A stretch of 64,000 nt of DNA, from positions 15,652 through 79,651 of the forward strand of contig CAYQWZ010000004.1 of NCBI GenBank assembly GCA_964421635.1, written 5' to 3'. This DNA is from an uncultured Candidatus Saccharibacteria bacterium. Lineage in GTDB: Bacteria; Patescibacteriota; UBA1384; CAILIB01; JAUSJZ01. The notes under the pieces were generated by a model, which saw nothing but the letters and a program-made list of their open reading frames with translations, ran no database searches and had not been told where the DNA came from. The translations under genes and the position numbers were made by a program. Below, in pieces: positions 6,911 to 30,967 of the stretch (positions are counted from its first letter, which is position 1; every line of letters begins with the position of its first letter).

Positions 6911-7262
6911 AAACATAGGTTTGAACTAGCCACAATAGACCGACCCAAATGAAGACATCCGCCAAATTGGTGGATATTTTAATTTGCCCCAAAGTTATAT
7001 TTATATAATCTACTGCCCCACCGTAAATAAGTTTGTCTAAACAGTTCGAGAATAATCCTATAAAAGTTAATAATATAGGATTCAAAAAAAACTTTTTTTG
7101 CCTCAACAGAAATATTGCGGCAATTATGAAGATAACGCCAAACTGCCAACTAAATATAAAATGGCTATTCATATTTGATGAAAGAATAAATTTAAATAGC
7201 CTATCTGCAAAAAAACCTACTAATAAAAAATAGATTATAAACTTAGTCTGTTTCGGCTGCAC
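6885..7262 (-). CDS. lspA: lipoprotein signal peptidase (signal peptidase II), possibly N-terminally longer with non-ATG start
   Basis: Polytopic membrane ORF with LspA C-terminal motifs GGAVDYINI and NLADVFIWVG (consensus GGA..N..DR...VDF and FN.AD). It lies next to lgt. 125 aa is short for LspA. Confidence 0.55.
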   Translation of the reverse strand: MQPKQTKFIIYFLLVGFFADRLFKFILSSNMNSHFIFSWQFGVIFIIAAIFLLRQKKFFLNPILLTFIGLFSNCLDKLIYGGAVDYINITLGQIKISTNLADVFIWVGLLWLVQTYVSIWRQPSQ

Positions 7263-7584
7263 TTTGAGCTTCTGGCATTATTTCTAATCGACCTTGTTCA
7301 ATCGGCTCTTTTGTTTTAATATCAAGACCGTAAGTACCTTTCTCAATTCGCTTTAATGCTAACTTCACATTCCTAAGCAAATCGTCAACATTATGTTTGA
7401 TGTGCAAATTACCTTCAAACTCTGAAGCCTCTTGAGCAGTATCATCTGGAGAATTACCAATATCGGGAAACTCGGCCAGCTCTTCTTGCTTAAGTGTTAG
7501 CTCTTTTAATTTATCTTCTAAACGCTTTTTCTGTTTAGCGATAAATTTATCTGTAAGATGTATGTTTCTTCTTTCTTTTTCCAT
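7243..7584 (-). CDS. DksA/TraR-family protein lacking the zinc-finger cysteines
   Basis: The C-terminus GTYGLDIKTKEPIEQGRLEIMPEAQS fits the DksA/TraR pattern GxYGxCxxCGxxI..RL...P.A, with every Cys replaced. It is preceded by a coiled-coil region. The start is taken at the internal Met (MEKERRNI), because the longer ORF overlaps lgt. Confidence 0.45.
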   Translation of the reverse strand: MEKERRNIHLTDKFIAKQKKRLEDKLKELTLKQEELAEFPDIGNSPDDTAQEASEFEGNLHIKHNVDDLLRNVKLALKRIEKGTYGLDIKTKEPIEQGRLEIMPEAQSAAETD

Positions 7585-8230
7585 AACTAATAACAATAAT
7601 ACCACATATAGCAAATGATAAAGCAACCAGCTGACTTATATTCAGGGAAAGAAACATATCTGGTAGGCTGCGGTAAAAATCAATAACGAATCTAGCTAAT
7701 CCATAAAAAATTAATATAACCCATAGGAGCTGGCCTTGATAAGCTTTTCGTTGGTACATTTTCAACACAATAAAAAATATTACTAACAAAGCTAGGCTCT
7801 CCATTAACTGTATTGGTACCCTATTGTAGAAGGATAAAAACTGGTCATTGCCCACCCCATAAGCGTCACGGTTTAAATAGTTACCTACCCGCCCAATTGA
7901 CCAAGCCAATACCGCCGTCAAAGAAAAAGTATCTAAAAGAGTTGGTAAATTCTCAGCTCGCCGGCGCCGCCAATAAAATATTAATAGCCCAAATATTATT
8001 CCTCCAAAAGAAATTAATCCGGATTGCCAAAAAGAGATATAGTCTAAAATATTTTCCGCTCCATTAAATAAAACATAGGCGATTCGAGCGCCTATTAAGC
8101 CAACCAAAAAAGACCAGAAATAGTCAGCCACCAAAATAACCTTCGATTCTTTCCTGTTTAGAGACACATAAAGTATCAGCCCAACAATTGCCCCCAGCGT
8201 AAAGAAAAGACTATGGTAATTAACATACAT
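7547..8230 (-). CDS. lgt: prolipoprotein diacylglyceryl transferase
   Basis: Polytopic membrane protein with the Lgt signature region SIGRVGNYLNRDAYG and YGLARFVIDFYR. Confidence 0.85.
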   Translation of the reverse strand: MYVNYHSLFFTLGAIVGLILYVSLNRKESKVILVADYFWSFLVGLIGARIAYVLFNGAENILDYISFWQSGLISFGGIIFGLLIFYWRRRRAENLPTLLDTFSLTAVLAWSIGRVGNYLNRDAYGVGNDQFLSFYNRVPIQLMESLALLVIFFIVLKMYQRKAYQGQLLWVILIFYGLARFVIDFYRSLPDMFLSLNISQLVALSFAICGIIVISYGKRKKKHTSYR

Positions 8231-8880: not shown

Positions 8881-10141
8881 GCTGAATTGGTGTGAGCTCA
8901 ATTTTTTCTTTCGTTCTTATCGTATTAATAATGTGTTTAAGGTGATGTCTAGCAATTCTTTTGTTAGTTTCTAAAACAAATTGCGGAGGATTAATATTGT
9001 CTTGAATGAGTGATTTAATGCCAATAAAAGATTGGTGCTCTCTTTGCAATTCAAATAAAAGATTTTTAGCAGTTTGGTCATCAATTCTCTTAGCTCGATT
9101 CTTTTTAACTTCTTTAATTTGTTGAATTAAGGGAGCAATATTCTTTTTCTCTTTAGCGGAAATAAAAACGACTGGAATGTAGGGTGCAAATGAGAACTTC
9201 TTTATTAACTTGTCTAACTGTTTATCTATGAAGCTGTCTTGATCTTCTTCAATTCGATCTAATTTATTCAAGACCAAGATTACTGATGCTCCATTAGTAA
9301 TAGCTGCGTTAGCTATTTTCAGATCTTGAACTGCTATGCCATCTACCAAATCGATAACCAACATAACGCAATCAACTTCGCCTAAGGTTTTCTCAATCCT
9401 TAAGGTTGAATATCTATTAACGCCTTTCATTGACTTGGCTCTGCGACCTAATCCGGCTGTATCAATTAGCTGTAGCTTGTTCTTTACACCAACATCAATT
9501 TTAACTAAATCTCTGGTGGTACCGGCAATGTCAGAAACAATTGAGATATCTGAATTGGAGATTGCATTAACCAAGGTTGATTTACCCGCATTTGGTCGTC
9601 CCAAAACTGCTACCGCGAATCTCTTTTCTTCAGCAAAAGGCTTGGCATAACCTTTCAGATATTCAATTAGATTAAATACTCCAATATTATGGATAGCCGA
9701 AACAAAGAACAGTTTATCTTTTTCAAATTTTATCTGTCGCAAAAGGTTCTCTTCAATAGCTGCATTATCTGCTTTATTGGCAACTATTAAAAAGGGTTTA
9801 TTGAGTTTTCTGACTTCTCTTAAAATCCTTTCGTCTTCAGCTGTAATTCCTTCTATTGCATCAATAATAAATAATATAAGAGTTATTCCTTGCATCACCT
9901 TCTTTTTTTGCAGTTGAGATAATTTTATAATTTCGTCTGTAGTCTTATTAACATCGCCAGCACTATCTACCAGCTCGACTGATTTTTTTCCAAAATGAAG
10001 TAATGATCTAACAAGATCTCTAGTGGTGTGAGCCTCGCCGTGTTCAATCGCTTCCCTTCTTCCGATAAGTCGGTTGAAAAGTGTTGATTTTCCCACATTT
10101 GGTCTGCCAACGAGTATTATAGAAGCAGGATGTTGGTTCAT
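8819..10141 (-). CDS. der: ribosome-associated GTPase Der (EngA)
   Basis: Two tandem GTPase domains (VGRPNVGKSTLFNRL and VLGRPNAGKSTLVNAI, each with DTAG) followed by a KH-like C-terminal domain. Confidence 0.9.
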   Translation of the reverse strand: MNQHPASIILVGRPNVGKSTLFNRLIGRREAIEHGEAHTTRDLVRSLLHFGKKSVELVDSAGDVNKTTDEIIKLSQLQKKKVMQGITLILFIIDAIEGITAEDERILREVRKLNKPFLIVANKADNAAIEENLLRQIKFEKDKLFFVSAIHNIGVFNLIEYLKGYAKPFAEEKRFAVAVLGRPNAGKSTLVNAISNSDISIVSDIAGTTRDLVKIDVGVKNKLQLIDTAGLGRRAKSMKGVNRYSTLRIEKTLGEVDCVMLVIDLVDGIAVQDLKIANAAITNGASVILVLNKLDRIEEDQDSFIDKQLDKLIKKFSFAPYIPVVFISAKEKKNIAPLIQQIKEVKKNRAKRIDDQTAKNLLFELQREHQSFIGIKSLIQDNINPPQFVLETNKRIARHHLKHIINTIRTKEKIELTPIQLIVKERLEQRKPESVTVVTA

Positions 10142-11563
10142 GTCGTAGTTAAATCACAGGTTAATAATATTGATGGGGTTTTGACTTATCACTCTCCTTC
10201 TAGTTTATCAGTTGGGCAATTAGTAACAGTCCCCCTACGCGGGCGTATACTACCGGGTTTTGTGGCAAAGATCAACACAGGGGCCAACTTTCGCGCCCAA
10301 ATTAAGCCAATCAAAAATAATTCTAATTTTGTTCTGCCCGAAAATTTCGTCAATTACTTTATGGCCGTAGCGCAATACTATTTAATTTCTCCCTCTACTT
10401 TACTCAAAATGACTTGGCCTTTCTTCAATCAAAAATATGTGAAGTATGAACAAAAAAATAATTTAGATAAGGATTCAAAAAGAGGGTCAACTCTATATTT
10501 CACTCCTAGTATTGAACAAGCTAACCGGCAAGTTTCTAAATTTATCACTATTGGTGCAGACGCTGCCAGCCGTCAACAAATTTTCTGGCAAAGCTTTTTT
10601 AATTCTGTAAATATTGCGGGCAGCCAAAATATTGCCTGGCTGCCTTACAAAAAAATAAATAGAATAATTTTTGACTCTCCTCTTTTAAGCCCTTTTGAAT
10701 CTGCTCGCTCACCAGGAATCCATTCATTATATTTAGCCTCAAAGCTGGCTTTTCACTACGGCTGCCCACTCATTGTGAGAACTGTAATTCCCAAAGAACT
10801 ACTTTGCAAGCGTTACCATATAAAAAATATTACTGTAAGACAACCCCCACTAAATAAAGTTGAAACCGTTCTGACGGCTGAGGGCTGGTTGAATAAAGAG
10901 ATGCAAAACATTATTTCGAATCTGTTGTCAAAGAATAAAAAAGTTGGCATCTATTACAATTCATTATCGAAAATTGACCAGTCGGGCAAAATTCAAGGAT
11001 TAGCAAACCTAGCCAATCAGCTATCAAAAATGTTTTCAATTCCTATTGGGGTAGTTAGCGATAAAGAGAACAGAAACCCGAATGCTCAACTGACCGTCTT
11101 TACTAACAAAATCCTCTATCAACAAATCAGTTTTGACCAAGTTATTGTGCTTGACCCTAAACTGCTTTTATCGCCCAATAGGCCACACAGCCACATTGAA
11201 GCGTTAGAGATTTTAGGATTACTAGCTTCCAGATATAATCTAACAGTTCAATCAAATGACTCAAAAAATGTCTTATTCAAAGCCTGTCAAGCCAATTTTA
11301 ATCCGCAAATTATAAATGCTCTCAACTGGCCCCACTTTAACAAAAGGATAATTCGACTAGTCGCTAAAAAACCAAATATCGAAAATGAGTTAGCTGAACT
11401 GAAAAAAATTAATCCTTCTTTACACCAAAACCTTGAAGGAGAAAGTACAGTTATTACCTTAATGACCAAACAAAAAGTTGATTCTGCCCTAGAGCAGTTC
11501 ATTTTGAAAAATCGAGCAAATTTTAGGATTTTTTCAGATGTATCAAGCCTACAACTTGAATAA
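10130..11563 (+). CDS. PriA-like protein: primosomal protein N' N-terminal 3'-DNA-binding domain without recognisable helicase motifs
   Basis: The N-terminus VHVVVKSQV..GVLTYHSPSSLSVGQLVTVPLRGRILPGFVAKIN matches the PriA N-terminal domain. I found no Walker A (GxGKT) or DEAD/H box in the remaining ~400 aa. Confidence 0.4.
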   Translation: MLVHVVVKSQVNNIDGVLTYHSPSSLSVGQLVTVPLRGRILPGFVAKINTGANFRAQIKPIKNNSNFVLPENFVNYFMAVAQYYLISPSTLLKMTWPFFNQKYVKYEQKNNLDKDSKRGSTLYFTPSIEQANRQVSKFITIGADAASRQQIFWQSFFNSVNIAGSQNIAWLPYKKINRIIFDSPLLSPFESARSPGIHSLYLASKLAFHYGCPLIVRTVIPKELLCKRYHIKNITVRQPPLNKVETVLTAEGWLNKEMQNIISNLLSKNKKVGIYYNSLSKIDQSGKIQGLANLANQLSKMFSIPIGVVSDKENRNPNAQLTVFTNKILYQQISFDQVIVLDPKLLLSPNRPHSHIEALEILGLLASRYNLTVQSNDSKNVLFKACQANFNPQIINALNWPHFNKRIIRLVAKKPNIENELAELKKINPSLHQNLEGESTVITLMTKQKVDSALEQFILKNRANFRIFSDVSSLQLE

Positions 11564-22058: not shown

Positions 22059-22817
22059 TTATTCGGTTTTTGAAACCGCATCGCGATACAAACAGTAATC
22101 GCACTCTTCGTTAGCTTTAGGCAGCTTCTTCGACTTCAAACATTTATGGGCAGCTATAATAGATTGCTCAACCCAAGCATCGTCACCCTTATGAGCTATC
22201 AAAGTGACATCGAACTCTAATTTAGCGTCAAAGGCCTTCTTATCAGTATTACCGTTGCAGTAAACAAAGTAGCCGGTATCTGAGACCGGCAAACCTTTCT
22301 GTCGCAACAGCCACTGATAAATCTCCATCTGCCGTTTGTATCCGTCATGCCAATCTTGGTCAAGGATAGTAATCTCATCGTTCTTACTCGTCGCTTTATA
22401 ATCTACGACTATGTACTCCCCCGCACTATTAATCCATAAATCATCAATGGCACCCGTAATGGTTAAGCCCGTCGGTTCGTGAACAATAGATACACCCTTG
22501 AAGTTCTCTCGCCATTCGTCTAGCTCTTCGTGGGCTACGGGCTTAGCGTCAATGCCATATTTTTCTTGTAGCGGATGCTGCTTGTCTTTCGCCCGATAAA
22601 GGTCAAACTCTTTTTTTAATAATGTGTCAACGGCTGTATTTAGGTTAAAAGGATATCCCTTTGGTCGCCCCAACCCCAAACGGTTGTCTAAATAAAAACA
22701 ACGCGGGCATTGTAAAAAGAGGTCGAGTTTAGATCGGCTAAGTTTAAACTGGTTCTTGGTAGTAGGATTAAAGTTCCAGTTGCTATTGCGCGGGATTTTG
22801 TAGTATTTAGACATCAC
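22059..22817 (-). CDS. Cas4-like PD-(D/E)xK nuclease with Fe-S cysteine cluster (RecB-family, DUF83-like), no CRISPR nearby
   Basis: N-terminal CPRC, motif II IDDLWI, motif III VVDYK, the QxxxY motif (RQMEIYQWL) and C-terminal C-x12-C-x2-C. Its start overlaps the stop of the tandem-HEPN gene by 4 nt. Confidence 0.6.
   Translation of the reverse strand: MMSKYYKIPRNSNWNFNPTTKNQFKLSRSKLDLFLQCPRCFYLDNRLGLGRPKGYPFNLNTAVDTLLKKEFDLYRAKDKQHPLQEKYGIDAKPVAHEELDEWRENFKGVSIVHEPTGLTITGAIDDLWINSAGEYIVVDYKATSKNDEITILDQDWHDGYKRQMEIYQWLLRQKGLPVSDTGYFVYCNGNTDKKAFDAKLEFDVTLIAHKGDDAWVEQSIIAAHKCLKSKKLPKANEECDYCLYRDAVSKTE
22064..22098. repeat. 35-bp imperfect direct repeat, copy B (inside the 3' coding end of the Cas4-like nuclease gene)
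   Basis: See copy A at 20996-21030. The two copies bracket the two-gene CYTH cassette. Confidence 0.7.
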
Positions 22818-23915: not shown

Positions 23916-26867
23916 CTACTCCTCGTTAGTTTTATCTAATTTTTCATACACCTCTTCAAACATTTTTTCTTTCACAAACTTACCAAATTCCGCATTTTCT
24001 ACAATCTTTTTGTATATATCAAAATTAGACTCAACCATAGTGTGCAATTGATCCTGAAAGATATGGGCAAAAACAAGCTTGAGAGCGTCTTTGTTATTTG
24101 TTTTGGCGCTTTGACTCAAGGTTTCGTTTCCTGTCAATCTCGTTTGTAGTTCGGCAAAGAATACTTTGTCACCTTCGGTGAAGTCAGTACCAAATCGTTC
24201 GTTCACTTCGTCAATTATGCGCGACAAAAATTCTTTTTCTTCGCCCATACCTTTACCTGTTCCCAGTCCCTCAATCGGCTTCAATTCACCGGTCTTTTTC
24301 TCCAGTTCAATATTGCCGCTGGATATTTGCTGGATGCGGTAAGTGTCCATATTCACATTGTCGGTAATTTCCACCGGCAATCTTTCTTTTTCGGCAGGTA
24401 ATTTACGCCCAAACATTCGCAAAAAGGCATAAAGTTTTTCTAAGTTCACATCCTTAAACGAGACAATCTGCGATAAGAAGGCATACATACGGACATAGTT
24501 TATTAATTGATCACGGAAATCAATTTTTTCTTTTTTTTCGCGCTTTAAATATTCTTCGACAATCGGGTCCAAAAGCGGATGTAGTTTTTCTTGCGTTGCT
24601 CCACGCTTGAAAAATACTTTGGCAAAGCTCTCCACATCATCTTTGGTAAAAATATCAAAATCAAGCAAGTTGCGCTCCAAATCATAAAGCTTGTTCGGGT
24701 CGGTTGCTTTGGTCAAAATCGCTTTGTCGTAATACGGCTGAAATGCTTTTTTTATTTCTTCTTCATAGTTGGCAAAATCCAAAACCAGCGTGTCCTCTTT
24801 ACCTTTGGTAGTGCGATTGAGCCGGCTCAAGGTCTGCACGGCCATCACACCACCTAATTTTTTATCAACATACATCGTATGAAGCAAAGGCTGATCGAAT
24901 CCGGTCTGGAATTTATTTGCTACTATCAAAATCTTAAATTCAGGTAATTTAAAGGTGTCGGCGGTGAGTTTATCGCTTCGCAAACCATTCATTCCGGCTT
25001 CGGTATATTCTTTTCCGCCGTCAGTTACCGTGCCGGAAAATGCCACCAAAGTTTTGATAGAATACTTGTGTTCTTTGATGAACTTGTCAAAAGCAAGTTT
25101 GTAGCGCACTGCGTGCAAACGCGAACGGGAGATAATCATCGCTTTGGCGTAGCCATCAATTTTGTGCGTAGTGTGCGACAGATAGTGTTCAATAATTAAT
25201 TCTGTTTTTTTACCAATAGCATGGTCATGCAACTCCACATATCCTTTTAAGAGCGCGATGCCCTTTTTCTTTTCATACTGCGGATCTTCTTCGGTTTTTT
25301 TGATCAAATTAAAGTAGGTCTGGAAGGTGGTGTAATTTTTTAAGACATCCAAAATAAAACCTTCTTCGATAGCTTGTCGCATTGAATACAAGTGAAAAGG
25401 TTCAAAAGTGCCATCGGCTTTTTTGGTACCGAAAAGTTGCATAGTTTTATCTTTCGGCGTAGCAGTAAAAGCAAAGAAGCTGATATTTTTTTGTCTGCCT
25501 CGGCTTGATAATTCCGCCAAAATCGCGTCTTCGCTCGTTAACTCTTCTTCGTTCTCATTCTCTGTTTCCGCTTCTTCCAGTGACCCAAGTGCTTTTTTTA
25601 AACTCTTGGTGCTCTCCCCAGATTGCGAAGAATGCGCCTCGTCAATAATCACGGCGAATTTTTTGCCTTCTTGTTTGATAAGTTCCTCCACGATGTAAGG
25701 AAATTTTTGCAAAGTGGAAACAATAATTCTTTTGCCAGATTCCAGCGCTTCTTTAAGTTGTTTTGAATGTTCGTCAATCGCCGCCACTACACCCTCCACT
25801 TGCGCGAATTGCCTGACTTCATCGCGAAGCTGTTTATCAATCACGCGTCGATCGGAAATAACAATCGCGGTATCAAAAATTTTCTGATCATTAGCATCGT
25901 GTAAACTGGAAAGTTTGTGAGCAAGCCATGAAATTGTTTTTGTCTTTCCACTTCCGGCGCTGTGCTGAATGAGATATTGCTGTCCGGCTCCGTGCTCTCG
26001 CGCGTGAGCCACCATTTTTCGCAGTGCATCCAACTGATGATAGCGCGGAAAAATAAGCGTCTCTTTTTCTTTTTGATTACCTTCCTCGTCCGTTGTCTTT
26101 TCAATAGATACGAGCATAAATTCGGCAATAATCTGAAGCAGGCTGTTTTTTTGCAAAACTTCTTCCCATAAATACGCGCTCTTGAACCCGCTCGGATTCA
26201 CCGGATTGCCAGCGCCGTTTTCAAAACCTTTGTTAAACGGCAAAAAGAATGTGGATTTGCCAGCCAAACGCGTGGTCATATACACGAGATCATTATCTAT
26301 GGCGAAATGCACCAAACAGCGCTTAAAGGCAAAAAGATCTTCGCGCGGGTCGCGGTCATAGCGATATTGTTTGATGGCGTCCTGTACATTTTGTCCGGTC
26401 AAATAGTTTTTGAGCTCCAGCGTAGAAATCGGCAAACCATTCAAGAAAATGACAGTATCAAGCGACTTGCCGTCTTTTTGGCTAAACTTCACCTGTCGCA
26501 TTATGGAAAAAATATTGTTCTGGTGGAGTTGGGCGTGTTCCGGATTCAAGGTGCTTTCGGGCGCAAAATACACCAATTGAAAACGCGAACCATAATCGGC
26601 AAAACCTTTGCGAAATACATCTAAAATCCCACGCGATTCAATTTCTGTTTTGAGACGATAAACAAATTTTGATTTTACTTCTTCGCCGTGCTGTTCTTTG
26701 AGTTTCTCCCATTCTTTTGGCTGGGTGGCGTAGATAAATTCAAAAAGCATTTCCTCGTCCATGCAGGATTCGGCATTGTAATTTTTTGGCTCACGTGCAC
26801 GATAGCCGGAAGCGGTCAAAACCGTTTCAATGTGCGCTTCAAATGACTTTTCTGATGTATCAATCAT
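23916..26867 (-). CDS. hsdR: Type I restriction enzyme R subunit (HsdR)
   Basis: 983 aa with an N-terminal PD-(D/E)xK region, SF2 helicase motifs (QHSAGSGKT, VIIDEAHSSQSG, and TGFD within the motif-VI region) and a C-terminal helical domain. Confidence 0.9.
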   Translation of the reverse strand: MIDTSEKSFEAHIETVLTASGYRAREPKNYNAESCMDEEMLFEFIYATQPKEWEKLKEQHGEEVKSKFVYRLKTEIESRGILDVFRKGFADYGSRFQLVYFAPESTLNPEHAQLHQNNIFSIMRQVKFSQKDGKSLDTVIFLNGLPISTLELKNYLTGQNVQDAIKQYRYDRDPREDLFAFKRCLVHFAIDNDLVYMTTRLAGKSTFFLPFNKGFENGAGNPVNPSGFKSAYLWEEVLQKNSLLQIIAEFMLVSIEKTTDEEGNQKEKETLIFPRYHQLDALRKMVAHAREHGAGQQYLIQHSAGSGKTKTISWLAHKLSSLHDANDQKIFDTAIVISDRRVIDKQLRDEVRQFAQVEGVVAAIDEHSKQLKEALESGKRIIVSTLQKFPYIVEELIKQEGKKFAVIIDEAHSSQSGESTKSLKKALGSLEEAETENENEEELTSEDAILAELSSRGRQKNISFFAFTATPKDKTMQLFGTKKADGTFEPFHLYSMRQAIEEGFILDVLKNYTTFQTYFNLIKKTEEDPQYEKKKGIALLKGYVELHDHAIGKKTELIIEHYLSHTTHKIDGYAKAMIISRSRLHAVRYKLAFDKFIKEHKYSIKTLVAFSGTVTDGGKEYTEAGMNGLRSDKLTADTFKLPEFKILIVANKFQTGFDQPLLHTMYVDKKLGGVMAVQTLSRLNRTTKGKEDTLVLDFANYEEEIKKAFQPYYDKAILTKATDPNKLYDLERNLLDFDIFTKDDVESFAKVFFKRGATQEKLHPLLDPIVEEYLKREKKEKIDFRDQLINYVRMYAFLSQIVSFKDVNLEKLYAFLRMFGRKLPAEKERLPVEITDNVNMDTYRIQQISSGNIELEKKTGELKPIEGLGTGKGMGEEKEFLSRIIDEVNERFGTDFTEGDKVFFAELQTRLTGNETLSQSAKTNNKDALKLVFAHIFQDQLHTMVESNFDIYKKIVENAEFGKFVKEKMFEEVYEKLDKTNEE

Positions 26868-26868
26868 A

Positions 26869-27216
26869 TTATTTTTTCGTTAAATATAGACAAACAATAT
26901 AAATTATTAAAGATGGTATCCCAACCGATAAAGCTAATGTCCAATTTTGTGTAGGGATAACTCCGACTGCAAAACCAAAACCCGCGGATGATATAAATTC
27001 AAAAAAAGTGATTAGCCAATAATTTTTTAGCTTTTCTTCCAAAATAACATTTCTTTTTTCAATTTCATATTTTTCCGTGCGTATCTTTTCTGCTTCATCC
27101 TGCGTCTTCTTCAAAGATGCTTCCAAATTATTTATTTTTTCGGACATCAATTTATATGCCGTCGTGGTTGACTGCTCTTTCTTTGTCAGCGTGTTTTGTG
27201 ATTTATTCTTCGCCAT
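26869..27216 (-). CDS. small coiled-coil protein with C-terminal double transmembrane hairpin, embedded in the R-M operon
   Basis: N-terminal heptad-rich region (LEASLKKTQDEAEKIRTEKYEIEKRNVILEEKLK), then two hydrophobic helices. Its stop abuts the hsdR start. Confidence 0.4.
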   Translation of the reverse strand: MAKNKSQNTLTKKEQSTTTAYKLMSEKINNLEASLKKTQDEAEKIRTEKYEIEKRNVILEEKLKNYWLITFFEFISSAGFGFAVGVIPTQNWTLALSVGIPSLIIYIVCLYLTKK

Positions 27217-27217
27217 A

Positions 27218-27586
27218 TCAGTTAAAAAGTTCAGTTAATGATATTGGCGACCAACCAAATGATTTTATTGGTTTAATGTTCGGTATTTGTGGAATAGCTG
27301 GAATTGGCGGTATTTGTGGAATAGCTGGAATTGGCGGTATTTGTGGAATAGGAAAAATCGGTGAAGGAAAATCGTTTGAATGCTGTGAGAAACCCGCAGT
27401 ATTGCCGTACAAATCCCTAATCACATATCCTTCAATCCAACCGCAATGCCTACCTCTATAATTGTAAATATATTGGTTGTCTTTTACATATCCAAGATTG
27501 TGTCCGTGGCGATTAAAAAATCTGCCTTGCCCATCAAGGATTATTTGCGCTGTTCCGTATCGATCAAAAAACCAAATGTTATTCAT
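27218..27586 (-). CDS. small beta-rich protein with proline/isoleucine nonapeptide tandem repeat, embedded in the R-M operon
   Basis: The N-terminus is Gly/Tyr/aromatic-rich (YIYNYRGRHCGWIEGYVIRDLYGN). The C-terminus is 2.6 copies of IPQIPPIPA, encoded by a perfect 27-bp tandem DNA repeat at ~27290-27360. Its start overlaps the hsdS stop by 8 nt. Confidence 0.4.
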   Translation of the reverse strand: MNNIWFFDRYGTAQIILDGQGRFFNRHGHNLGYVKDNQYIYNYRGRHCGWIEGYVIRDLYGNTAGFSQHSNDFPSPIFPIPQIPPIPAIPQIPPIPAIPQIPNIKPIKSFGWSPISLTELFN

Positions 27587-28934
27587 AATTTTTTATCATA
27601 ATTTTACCCGTTACGGCGCTGGTAATAAGCGCCTGTCGGTATTCTCGCAGTTTTTCAATCTGCATTTCTACTTTTTTCATCATCCCATCAATCTTTGCAC
27701 TTTCGTGGTCAATATAGTCAGCAATCTCTTTTTGCAGTGAATAAGGTGGCAATGTGATAATCAAATTTTCAATGACACCCATGCCAATATTTTGTTGCGT
27801 TCCATATGACCATGAAAACTCTACTTGATCATGAAATAATTTACTCAACAAAGAGTAAAATAAAAATATATATTGTGATTTCTTCTCATCCGCTCTAATC
27901 AGTGCCAAAGGTGACCAAATACTAAATTCAAAATCCACCTCAACTATTGCTATATTGCCGGTAGTAGCTCCGGATTTGATAAGAAAAATATCATTTTTTT
28001 GCGGTTTACATTTTTTTGAGTATAGTTTGTGAAGTTCCTCGGAAATAAAACCTCGTCTTAAATCAAAATTAATTTTTTCATTTTTTACAGCTTCGGCAGA
28101 AATAAAATTGACACCTTCGTCCAAAATTTCCGGGGTTTCGTGCGGGCCATCTGTGATTTTTATTCCTACAACTCGTTTAAGTGGTAAAGCCTGCCACCTT
28201 TCCGGAATATCACCCAGCCAGTCAATGCCGGAGGGTTTCATTTTTGCCTTCGGATCAAGGCCTTTGGTGACGGCGTGGGTGATGAGCGCTTGGCGTTTTT
28301 CTTTGAGAAGCGCCATCATCTTTTGCTTTTTCGCCACCATCTCATCAATTTTTGCCGTCTCACGGTCGAGAAAATCTGTGATCTGTTTCTGTTCATCCTT
28401 CGGAGGAGCAAATAAAAATGACTTACTTATAAATCCAGAATTCAATCCAGGTTGTGCCGAACCCCTCATTTCTAAAAATATTTGTTCTTGCCCAATCTTC
28501 GAGATTATAAAATAATATAAATATTTTGGAGTATTTTTATTGTTTGCTCTGATAATAAAAACATGTTCATTGACCGCAGCATCTTCCAAAAACGATTTAC
28601 CAATCAAAGCTGTTTTCCCAATAGTTGCGCCATCTTTAACTAATAAAACATCATTTTCTTTTATTTTACCTTGATTCATTTGGAGATAGTATTCTCGAGA
28701 AATGTATCTTGGATTCTCCAATAGTATTTCTCCATTCCATCCAACATGCTCACCGCCAATACTTAACACGCCACCGTCAAGATTGATGGATTCTGATTCA
28801 CGACCACCGCTTTGTAGTGGCTCTATAATATTTTTCAGCCGTTTCACTTCCCACCCAGTCGGAATATCGCCCAACCAGTCAATGCCGGAGGGTTTGTACT
28901 TGGAATATGTTTTGTATTTTGTCGCGGTTGTCAT
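27579..28934 (-). CDS. hsdS: Type I restriction-modification specificity subunit (HsdS)
   Basis: Two target-recognition domains separated by duplicated conserved regions (KPSGIDWLGDIPTGW and KPSGIDWLGDIPERW), plus coiled-coil spacers. Confidence 0.85.
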   Translation of the reverse strand: MTTATKYKTYSKYKPSGIDWLGDIPTGWEVKRLKNIIEPLQSGGRESESINLDGGVLSIGGEHVGWNGEILLENPRYISREYYLQMNQGKIKENDVLLVKDGATIGKTALIGKSFLEDAAVNEHVFIIRANNKNTPKYLYYFIISKIGQEQIFLEMRGSAQPGLNSGFISKSFLFAPPKDEQKQITDFLDRETAKIDEMVAKKQKMMALLKEKRQALITHAVTKGLDPKAKMKPSGIDWLGDIPERWQALPLKRVVGIKITDGPHETPEILDEGVNFISAEAVKNEKINFDLRRGFISEELHKLYSKKCKPQKNDIFLIKSGATTGNIAIVEVDFEFSIWSPLALIRADEKKSQYIFLFYSLLSKLFHDQVEFSWSYGTQQNIGMGVIENLIITLPPYSLQKEIADYIDHESAKIDGMMKKVEMQIEKLREYRQALITSAVTGKIMIKNYE

Positions 28935-28936
28935 AA

Positions 28937-29443
28937 TTAAATATCCATTAGCATTTTGGCGATTTCATCTTCCAGTTTTTTAATATCCCCGCCAATTTCA
29001 TCAAGCGGTCGCAAGGGTTTGTATTCATAAAAATAGCGCGTAAAACTAATCTCGTAGCCTACCTTGCCGATCTTGCCGTCTTTGTGATCGCAGTATTTCT
29101 TATCTTCGCTAATCCATGCGTCCGGCACATGTGGCAGGACTTCTCGCTTGAAATATTCGGTAATATCTTCGCCAAGCGAGACATTTTCATAATCGCGTAA
29201 ATCAACATCCGATTCAGGATTGCCTTTTTTGTCGGTAATGACATCGGCTGTTTCGTCGCGTTCGGAAAGACCTTTGAGAATGGCTTTTTTGACGGGAGCG
29301 TCTAGCTTAAGATTCGCTTTTTTGAAAGCTTGCTCTAATACTTCAATAAATTTTTCTTGATTTTTATAAAGTGTGTCGCCGATAGTGGCGAGTGTTTTCT
29401 GAATAGAAATTTGCAGAGCAAAACCGGCTTTTTCTTCTTCCAA
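28937..29443 (-). CDS. HsdM C-terminal-domain-like ORF (TTG start), in frame with hsdM across a single TAA: split hsdM or pseudogene candidate
   Basis: Same reading frame as the hsdM ORF at 29483-30967, separated from it only by TAA at 29483-29485 plus 13 sense codons. It has no ATG start. The content (VGYEISFTRYFYEYKPLRPLDEIGGDI) resembles the C-terminal region of long HsdM proteins, from memory. Confidence 0.45.
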   Translation of the reverse strand: MEEEKAGFALQISIQKTLATIGDTLYKNQEKFIEVLEQAFKKANLKLDAPVKKAILKGLSERDETADVITDKKGNPESDVDLRDYENVSLGEDITEYFKREVLPHVPDAWISEDKKYCDHKDGKIGKVGYEISFTRYFYEYKPLRPLDEIGGDIKKLEDEIAKMLMDI

Positions 29444-29482
29444 TTTTTTAAGCGGATCGCGCTTCTTGCTTTTAGCAAGATT

Positions 29483-30967
29483 TTAGAAAGTGGATTCGGC
29501 TTTCAGTCTTTCTAAACGCTCGGCGCTGGCTTGAAAATTAAGTTTGAGCGGGCGCTCAACGGTAATTTTGCGATAGCCAAAAAATTCATTCGGAAAGACT
29601 TTGACGATTTTACTTTTTTCGCCGTCCAAAGTAAGTTCGGTAATTTTTTGGATTTGTTCGTCAGAAATGACATTGCGTTTGTCGCCCAAGCTCTTGCGCA
29701 TTTTTTCGTAGAGATCAACTGCATTGATGAGTTTTACTTTACCCTTGTGATGATCTTTTTTGCGATTGGTCAGGACCCAAATATAGGTATGAATACCGGT
29801 ATTATAAAAAAGCTGGTTTGGTAGAGCAATGATTGTTTCCAGCCAGTCATTTTCAATAATCCAACGGCGAATTTCGCTTTCACCGCTTCCGGCATCTCCT
29901 GTAAAGAGTGGCGAACCATTCATAACAATCGCAATACGGCTTCCGCCGTTAGATGGTTTGATTTTAGTAAGCATTGTTTGCAGGAATAGCAATTGGCCGT
30001 CGCTAATTCGCGGAAGGCCGGCGCCGAATCGACCTTGAAAGCCGAACTCCGCTTCTTTTTCAATTTCTTTTTGATCTTTTTTCCATTCCTTGCCGTAAGG
30101 CGGATTGGAAAGCATATAATCAAAGGTTTCGCCAAAGAGATGATCGTGTGAAAGAGTGGAGCCAAATTTTATATTGTCAGCATTTTCGCCTTTGATCAGT
30201 AAGTCAGATTTAGCAACGGCGAAAGTTTCCGGATTTACTTCTTGACCAAACATTTCTACTTGAGCAGTATCATTTACGCTTTCCAAAATCCATTTTTTGG
30301 CTTCGGTAAGCATGCCACCGCTTCCGCAGGCCGGATCGTAAATTGTTTTAATAATGCGTTGTTTTTTCAAAATTTCCATGTCCGGCGAAAACAACAGATT
30401 GACCATCAGGCGGATAATTTCGCGCGGAGTAAAATGTTCTCCGGGATTTTCATTTGACGCTTCGTTAAACTTGCGAATCAATTCCTCAAAAACATAACCC
30501 ATTGCCAGATTGCTCACGCAATCTGGGTGCATTTCAACTTCGCTGAATTTTTCTATGACTTGATAGGTAAGATTGGCTTCTTCGAGTTTTTTTATTTGAC
30601 TTGAAAAATCAAATTTATCAAAAATTTCTCGCATTAGAGGGCTATATGCATTAAGGTACAAATTTAGATTTTTACCAATATTTTTTGGATCGTCTAAAAG
30701 TTTTTTGAAATCGTATTGTGAAGTATTATAAAAATTGTATCCGCTGGCTTTTTTTAAAATTCCGTCCATAGCTTCCAACCTACCTTTGTATTTTTCATAC
30801 TTTACCAACACATCAGCTTTAGTGTCTTCAAGCGCGGCATCAAGACGGCGCAGGACAGTAAGTGGTAAAATAACATCCGGATATTTCGCACGCTTAAAGT
30901 CATCACGTAAAAGGTTGGCGATGCTCCAGATGAAATTGACGATTTGTTGGTGATTAATTTCATTCAT
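29483..30967 (-). CDS. hsdM: Type I restriction-modification DNA methyltransferase subunit (HsdM), N-terminal and catalytic part
   Basis: HsdM_N helical domain, AdoMet motif I (IYDPACGSGGML), catalytic motif IV NPPYG, and the downstream helical region FGYRKITVERPLKLNF. Confidence 0.9.
   Translation of the reverse strand: MNEINHQQIVNFIWSIANLLRDDFKRAKYPDVILPLTVLRRLDAALEDTKADVLVKYEKYKGRLEAMDGILKKASGYNFYNTSQYDFKKLLDDPKNIGKNLNLYLNAYSPLMREIFDKFDFSSQIKKLEEANLTYQVIEKFSEVEMHPDCVSNLAMGYVFEELIRKFNEASNENPGEHFTPREIIRLMVNLLFSPDMEILKKQRIIKTIYDPACGSGGMLTEAKKWILESVNDTAQVEMFGQEVNPETFAVAKSDLLIKGENADNIKFGSTLSHDHLFGETFDYMLSNPPYGKEWKKDQKEIEKEAEFGFQGRFGAGLPRISDGQLLFLQTMLTKIKPSNGGSRIAIVMNGSPLFTGDAGSGESEIRRWIIENDWLETIIALPNQLFYNTGIHTYIWVLTNRKKDHHKGKVKLINAVDLYEKMRKSLGDKRNVISDEQIQKITELTLDGEKSKIVKVFPNEFFGYRKITVERPLKLNFQASAERLERLKAESTF

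Follow-up and report, generated by a model that had tools for sequence, protein, structure and literature searches.

The 64,000-nucleotide stretch of Candidatus Saccharibacteria DNA analysed here (the window) carries on its minus strand a Type I restriction-modification (R-M) operon in the order hsdM-hsdS-two small accessory genes-hsdR, which adjoins thrS on a Patescibacteria chromosome. The subject of this report is the modification gene of this operon, hsdM, and an in-frame stop codon within it. Translated in one frame from position 30967 to position 28937, the gene comprises 494 sense codons, a stop, 181 further sense codons and a final TAA (28939..28937), the last lying at the same point where homologues end. 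The ancestral full-length frame (28937..30967, minus strand, as given by single-frame translation) therefore spans 676 codons plus a stop and is interrupted at codon 495; neither a frameshift nor a second internal stop occurs in the one-frame translation of 30967..28937.

The 494-codon open reading frame (ORF) at the 5′ end begins with ATG (30967..29486, minus strand) and occupies 29483..30967 when its TAA at 29485..29483 is included. None of the 13 sense codons following this stop (29444..29482, minus strand; NLAKSKKRDPLKK) is ATG, GTG or TTG. The first possible start is the TTG at 29443..29441, 39 nucleotides downstream, which opens a 168-residue ORF (28937..29443, minus strand) within the 181 in-frame codons. 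Both the conserved C-terminal block of the protein family and its terminal helix lie in this 3′ remnant. One-frame translation thus reproduces exactly the layout described in an earlier note on this DNA, which had reported a 494-residue hsdM ORF ending at the TAA at 29483-29485, 13 sense codons, and then 168 residues from a TTG.

The upstream ORF has the properties of a Type I modification subunit. An HsdM_N domain (PF12161, E = 3.7e-26) is followed by an N6-adenine methylase domain (N6_Mtase, PF02384, E = 1.2e-62), and the translation shows both motif I for S-adenosylmethionine (AdoMet), DPACGSGGML, and the catalytic motif IV of the NPPY type, NPPYG. The ORF also shares an operon with an hsdS that encodes two target-recognition domains and an hsdR that encodes a helicase-nuclease. 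The PADLOC hidden Markov model for MTase_I, PDLC03029 (661 positions), matches the upstream ORF with its positions 1-495 (E = 1.3e-231) and the downstream piece with its positions 496-659 (E = 6.3e-47), the two matches being consecutive and without overlap. Because one profile covers both ORFs in turn, they are consecutive parts of one protein family. Moreover, the 181 downstream codons share 93% protein identity with the corresponding part of a continuous 676-residue homologue, and on these sequence grounds we conclude that the open frame beyond the stop is not a chance continuation. The locus does not encode a complete HsdM polypeptide that includes the C-terminal assembly region; the C-terminal part is encoded but is cut off by the TAA at codon 495 of 676.

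This hsdM belongs to a family of long-form Type I M subunits (PDLC03029, ∼676 residues), with which it is colinear over all 676 codons at 46-94% identity. The members compared come from Patescibacteria, Chloroflexota, Actinomycetota, cyanobacteria, Methanosarcina, haloarchaea and others, and database records name them ‘type I restriction-modification system subunit M’ or ‘class I SAM-dependent DNA methyltransferase’. Domain order and the hsdS and hsdR partners are shared between these members and the window, whereas the window copy differs by a TAA in place of CAA at codon 495. Against the NCBIfam hsdM equivalog TIGR00497, the N-terminal ORF scores 93.6 bits, below the cut-off of 242.75, which marks it as part of a different HsdM lineage.

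A protein search with the fused hsdM sequence against a database of 5.8 billion clusters returned thousands of matches. The 33 top-ranking matches are all continuous proteins with 100% query coverage, of which 28 are exactly 676 residues long, and the named ones among the best homologues stem from metagenome-assembled genomes (MAGs) of the Patescibacteria group. More than 100 database homologues are continuous proteins of ∼660-730 residues with identities of up to 94%, the length being 676 residues in the closest relatives. In an alignment of the query with its 120 best matches, the column that holds the stop is most commonly glutamine (47 of 120 homologues, including nearly all close ones), and every homologue spanning codon 495 has a sense residue there. 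The junction is therefore crossed without a break by full-length HsdM homologues of ∼676 residues, which bears out the suggestion of the earlier note that the downstream part corresponds to a C-terminal region fused to HsdM in longer homologues. The contrary arrangement named in that note, homologues of ∼490 residues accompanied by an independent downstream gene, is clearly not what the searches returned.

The same picture emerged from a survey of 80 species-representative genomes of Bacteria and Archaea, including Leptolinea, Nocardia, Streptomyces, Haloferax and other haloarchaea, in which the best locus returned is that of a 92%-identical Patescibacteria MAG. About 70 of these genomes show a single one-frame match that runs from the N-terminus to a stop at ∼656-731 codons. 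Three others carry longer C-terminal extensions, two run off the contig, and one (L045) ends at ∼510 codons near a contig end. The remaining four (L037, L060, L068 and L077) have genes of 587-598 codons in which residues ∼475-570 are absent and residues 571-676 are kept in frame. Several database proteins of 571-581 residues (P0034, P0035, P0039 and P0041-P0044) part from the long form at the same boundary, marked by the sequence ERPL. Given these shorter HsdM forms of 587-598 codons, the helical segment that contains the stop resembles an optional insert.

The possibility raised in the earlier note that HsdM is naturally made as two polypeptides was addressed by searching for stand-alone C-terminal genes with the 181-residue fragment as query. 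This search gave only ORFs of 106-317 residues, mostly on contigs of 1-3 kb. Their starts fall anywhere within residues 338-563 of the full-length protein, with no preferred position, and many open at the first internal methionine after a contig end; most are contig-end truncations. Four cases on long contigs were inspected. Three are degraded or fragmented loci, namely an hsdM remnant next to a recombinase (L004), an hsdM in three pieces (L006) and a degraded locus at a contig end (L090); in the fourth (L007), hsdM is split into two pieces in different frames while the rest of the operon is intact. The scattered starts and the four inspected loci rule out a conserved two-gene hsdM, and no conserved separate C-terminal gene was found in this search.

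The origin of the stop is apparent from close relatives for which DNA is available. The closest full-length relative of this kind, L003 (which encodes protein P0001), aligns without gaps over all 2031 nucleotides and reads TTT CAA AAT where the window reads TTC TAA AAT. L008 and L009 likewise carry CAA at the aligned codon, so that all three closest relatives with DNA have a glutamine codon here. Since these relatives carry CAA, the premature stop (29483..29485, minus strand) is explained by a single C>T transition on the coding strand, that is, G>A at plus-strand position 29485 (A in the window, G in the ancestor), giving Q495*.

Identical DNA was also found outside the source assembly. The exact 494-residue product is encoded on two ENA contigs assembled by MEGAHIT (k141), from ERZ27248922 (21 kb) and ERZ27248936 (1.8 kb), whose DNA matches the window perfectly apart from one 27-nucleotide repeat unit that the ERZ27248922 contig lacks in an accessory gene of the operon described below. 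In addition, contig Ga0077109_1030355 of the Joint Genome Institute (JGI) metagenome 3300005645 is 100% identical over 2055 nucleotides, TAA included. With three other assemblies showing the TAA on 100% identical DNA, it is unlikely to be a random consensus error. The 5.8-billion-cluster protein database contains no full-length version above 94% identity.

In this genome TAA appears to have its usual meaning. The stop codons of 45 long ORFs in the window are TAA in 29 cases, TAG in 8 and TGA in 8, and the 11 tRNA genes that the window contains include none with a stop-reading anticodon and none that resembles a suppressor. An alternative genetic code was considered and rejected, because all three stop codons serve as terminators in the window, TAA most often. 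The hsdM lesion consequently combines the two features expected of a nonsense pseudogene: a stop at a position that is sense in close full-length relatives, and a TAA that retains its standard meaning in the window.

Substitution patterns indicate that the lesion is young. Relative to L003, the ratio of nonsynonymous to synonymous substitution rates (dN/dS) takes values of 0.030 in codons 1-494 and 0.031 in codons 496-676, at a synonymous divergence (dS) of ∼1. Judged by these ratios, the downstream part is under equally strong constraint for essentially the whole divergence from L003. Given a dN/dS of 0.03 before as well as after the stop, and with hsdS and hsdR both full length, the lesion is recent. 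We conclude that the TAA mutation is real in a natural population and very young, with no other decay in the operon. The event is of an ordinary kind.

The change removes the last 182 residues of the protein, including the most conserved C-terminal block of the family. An AlphaFold2 model of a 94%-identical full-length protein (mean predicted local distance difference test score, pLDDT, 87; predicted template modelling score, pTM, 0.80) places residue 495 within a helix (492-498) that is confidently folded and is not a disordered linker. Beyond residue 498 the model continues with a helical segment (505-566) followed by a beta-rich part (568-638), and ends in a long terminal helix (655-675), all with pLDDT values of ∼90. 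In a model of the C-terminal region by itself, built from a shallower alignment, the helices are still predicted with confidence and the pLDDT falls below 50 at residues ∼590-596 and 617-650 of the beta-rich part; this drop suggests, as far as the models go, that the beta-rich part packs on the rest of the protein.

Known structures do not extend to this region. The sequence match to solved HsdM structures (PacII, EcoR124I, EcoKI and others) is limited to the first ∼440-450 residues, and by fold they align over ∼470-520 columns. The C-terminal piece has no match of its own in Pfam, NCBIfam or a PDB sequence profile, and a Foldseek search of the PDB with the isolated-domain model of the C-terminal 200 residues gave no fold relative, with nothing below E = 0.8. 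For the ∼200 C-terminal residues of the family as a whole, which have neither a Pfam model, a solved sequence relative nor a significant fold match, we can only infer the role. The part after residue 570 is nevertheless rich in invariant residues and is kept even by the shortest family members. Because the members of 587-598 residues drop residues ∼475-570 yet keep 571-676, the last ∼105 residues appear to be the indispensable part.

Taken together, these observations favor the reading that hsdM is a recent nonsense pseudogene of the long form (Q495*), most likely disabling an otherwise intact Type I system, to which we assign a probability of roughly 0.75. Of the options listed in the earlier note, a pseudogenised M subunit is the best supported, given the continuous homologues and the CAA codon of relatives. 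The proposed course of events is that glutamine codon 495 (CAA) of an hsdM of the widespread long M-subunit family (∼676 residues) became TAA in this lineage by one C>T transition. Translation would then stop after 494 residues, so that the N-terminal and catalytic domains are made and the last 182 residues are missing.

In characterised Type I enzymes, HsdM's C-terminal region docks on the coiled coil of HsdS and is required for assembly of the M2S complex. A passage in PMC2647291, which cites Cooper & Dryden 1994 and Powell et al. 2003, describes EcoKI HsdM that lacks ∼43 C-terminal residues as folded but unable to bind M1S1. The truncated EcoKI protein, produced by proteolysis and by engineering, resembles the window product in that the N-terminal and catalytic domains are kept and the C-terminal part is lost, and it serves as the model for the predicted restriction- and modification-negative (r− m−) state. 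EcoKI nonetheless represents a different Type I family, and its C-terminal region comprises ∼60 residues compared to the 182 lost here. By analogy with EcoKI, HsdM(1-494) should fail to assemble with HsdS, so that no M2S complex would form and no methylation would occur. It is established for Type I enzymes that HsdR acts only when bound to M2S. Because HsdR is inactive without this complex, restriction would be absent as well, and the system is most likely, on this analogy, r− m−, its loss being tolerated by the cell. Translation of hsdS may also be reduced through lost coupling, because hsdS starts 2 nucleotides after the normal hsdM stop and termination now takes place 546 nucleotides upstream.

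Several points weigh against this interpretation. The predicted loss of methylation draws on EcoKI, whose C-terminal region shows no detectable sequence or fold similarity to the region concerned here. A Shine-Dalgarno sequence is missing before the TTG, but this does not exclude use of the codon, as most genes in the window are without an obvious one. A very recent mutation would explain the perfectly kept downstream frame, but so, equally well, would continued function of the fragment. Furthermore, the four assemblies that carry the TAA may share read sets, and the stop is known from assembly consensus sequences, such that a co-existing CAA allele may be present. The suggestion in the earlier note that hsdM could be pseudogenised, which would silence both modification and restriction, is upheld for the pseudogene, whereas the silencing would follow from the EcoKI truncation data together with the conservation of the lost region.

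Alternatives in which a split or truncated M subunit keeps activity are, even when combined, unlikely. In the first of these, translation reinitiates at the TTG 39 nucleotides past the TAA, or initiates there independently, and the 168-residue piece joins HsdM(1-494) and HsdS to give a partly active system. The intact downstream frame with its dN/dS of 0.03 is what such a system would show, although recency accounts for the preserved frame equally well. The break does fall in the segment (∼475-570) that some natural members lack, a neighborhood that tolerates large changes, and the general scarcity of Shine-Dalgarno sequences in this genome could mean that initiation rules are relaxed. However, no homologue has a conserved split at this position, the isolated C-terminal ORFs starting anywhere from residue 338 to 563. 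The stop also lies inside a predicted helix and not in a linker, a TTG start would lose residues 495-508, and the beta-rich C-terminal part is not confidently folded when modeled alone. Finally, promoter-like sites are no more frequent than expected from shuffled sequence, with none close to the TTG. We consider a functional split HsdM of this kind quite improbable.

Slightly more doubtful still is a related scenario of gene fission in progress, wherein the 168-residue piece is made by reinitiation at TTG and reassembles with HsdM(1-494) and HsdS into a working split M subunit. Such fission would be helped by the position of the break, because the ∼475-570 segment is missing from some family members.

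Alternatively, HsdM(1-494) might by itself retain enough binding to HsdS, through contacts with the target-recognition domains, to methylate DNA, in which case modification would persist, possibly without restriction. The HsdM_N and N6_Mtase domains are indeed complete in the truncated product, catalytic motifs included, and solved HsdM subunits of 495-530 residues align with residues 1-494. These shorter HsdMs, however, have C-terminal HsdS-docking helices of their own, the removal of which abolishes assembly in EcoKI, and the last ∼105 residues of the long form are kept in its shortest variants, where many residues are invariant. Activity of the truncated subunit alone is thus very unlikely.

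Equally remote is the prospect that the T arose as an error of consensus or assembly, or that it represents a minority allele because the assemblies share reads and most cells have CAA. The ENA assemblies could have been re-assembled from overlapping data, and the exact sequence is found in only a few assemblies. Against this, the same base is present in four assemblies from at least two pipelines (ENA MEGAHIT, JGI and the source of the window), and one of these assemblies differs by a 27-nucleotide repeat unit elsewhere, such that they are not copies of each other. Substitution errors are rare in short-read consensus sequences, and the 5.8-billion-cluster database holds no full-length protein of more than 94% identity. 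The sequencing or assembly error considered in the earlier note is accordingly improbable.

Least credible of all is programmed readthrough, recoding or phase variation, by which the TAA would be decoded or reversibly switched to tune the dosage of the M subunit: nothing specific speaks for it apart from a possible weak hairpin at the stop (−9.0 kcal/mol predicted, within a 9-base-pair inverted repeat), while the stop is not conserved and relatives have CAA, TAA, the terminator used most often in the window, ends the hsdM frame itself, no stop-reading tRNA is found among the 11 tRNA genes of the window, and the site contains neither a homopolymer of more than 4 nucleotides nor any tandem repeat beyond weak matches of fewer than two copies. 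The readthrough that the earlier note listed as a less likely option hence finds no backing, and phase variation is refuted as a mechanism by the lack of a repeat tract. Phase-variable hsdM, hsdS and mod genes (PMC7383803; MmyCI, PMC3498834) likewise have a premature stop in the methylase frame while the rest of the system is intact. Those genes, however, use a mutable repeat tract with a reversible frame shift, whereas the window has a point substitution in non-repetitive sequence and an unchanged frame.

The inverted repeat at the stop is a perfect one (29482..29516, coding strand, minus), consisting of TTTAGAAAG (29516..29508), 17 nucleotides, and CTTTCTAAA (29490..29482). The nonsense T is needed for perfect pairing of the two arms, an observation made post hoc, and repeat arms of this sort take up only 0.5% of the bases in the window. 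If the T is reverted to C, the predicted hairpin becomes weaker, at −5.5 instead of −9.0 kcal/mol. The repeat could be a coincidence, or the nonsense change could have been born of quasi-palindrome template switching.

If hsdM is a recent nonsense pseudogene, then the two ORFs belong together in annotation as one hsdM pseudogene (Q495*) and should not be listed as a methylase plus a hypothetical protein. Likewise, predictions of the defence repertoire or the methylome of this Patescibacteria population should not include this Type I system as an active one. The locus provides a clean case of how young such lesions can be, and the undecayed state of the rest of the operon fits the rapid turnover of R-M systems. 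The lesion itself opens no new biological question.

The remaining genes of the operon follow closely on hsdM. The ATG of hsdS (27579..28934, minus strand) lies 2 nucleotides past the terminal hsdM stop, and the gene encodes 451 residues with two target-recognition domains, as indicated by Pfam PF01420 in two stretches and by a PADLOC Specificity_I match over residues ∼5-449. It is full length by comparison with its L008 counterpart of 453 residues, but the two are only 40% identical, and on account of this low identity we regard the hsdS sequence as diverged. The hsdR gene (23916..26867, minus strand) is also full length, with 983 residues and Pfam matches to HSDR_N, SWI2_SNF2/ResIII and a T1R_D3-like domain, and is 95.6% identical over residues 1-978 to the 978-residue HsdR of L008. 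The order hsdM/hsdS/hsdR matches that of L008 as well. The Pfam matches and the comparison with this relative agree with the statement of the earlier note that hsdR and hsdS are intact.

Two small genes separate hsdS from hsdR. The first (27218..27586, minus strand) encodes a 122-residue 4-fold beta-flower protein (PF21784) and contains an in-frame 27-nucleotide tandem repeat; the second (26869..27216, minus strand) encodes a 115-residue protein with a hydrophobic C-terminus that has no match in Pfam, NCBIfam or PADLOC. Both are also found at the same position in L008 (11816..12533), where the beta-flower protein is 92% and the 115-residue protein 96% identical, and the pair (window 26869..27586) is absent from all other searched related loci of the same HsdM family. 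The repeat in the beta-flower gene (27281..27351, minus strand) is perfect, with 2.6 copies of the 27-nucleotide unit, and encodes a proline-rich IPPIPAIPQ stretch. In the ENA contig L001, which is identical in other respects, one unit is missing (27325..27351), so that 113 residues are encoded instead of 122. This difference represents either an in-frame copy-number polymorphism within the same population or an assembly collapse.

The intact L008 operon has two genes that are absent from the window: a DUF8426/YhcG_C nuclease-like gene upstream of hsdM (7068..7997) and a 137-residue ORF between hsdM and hsdS (10034..10447). In the window, thrS and glyA lie upstream of the operon, and the stretch as a whole is ordinary chromosome, with a G+C content of 39.5%. 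On its other side, hsdR is followed by a gene for 363 residues that has no PADLOC defence-family match, beyond which lies a gene (22059..22817, minus strand) for a 252-residue protein with weak PADLOC matches to nucleases of the Cas4/PD-(D/E)xK type (E = 1e-11).

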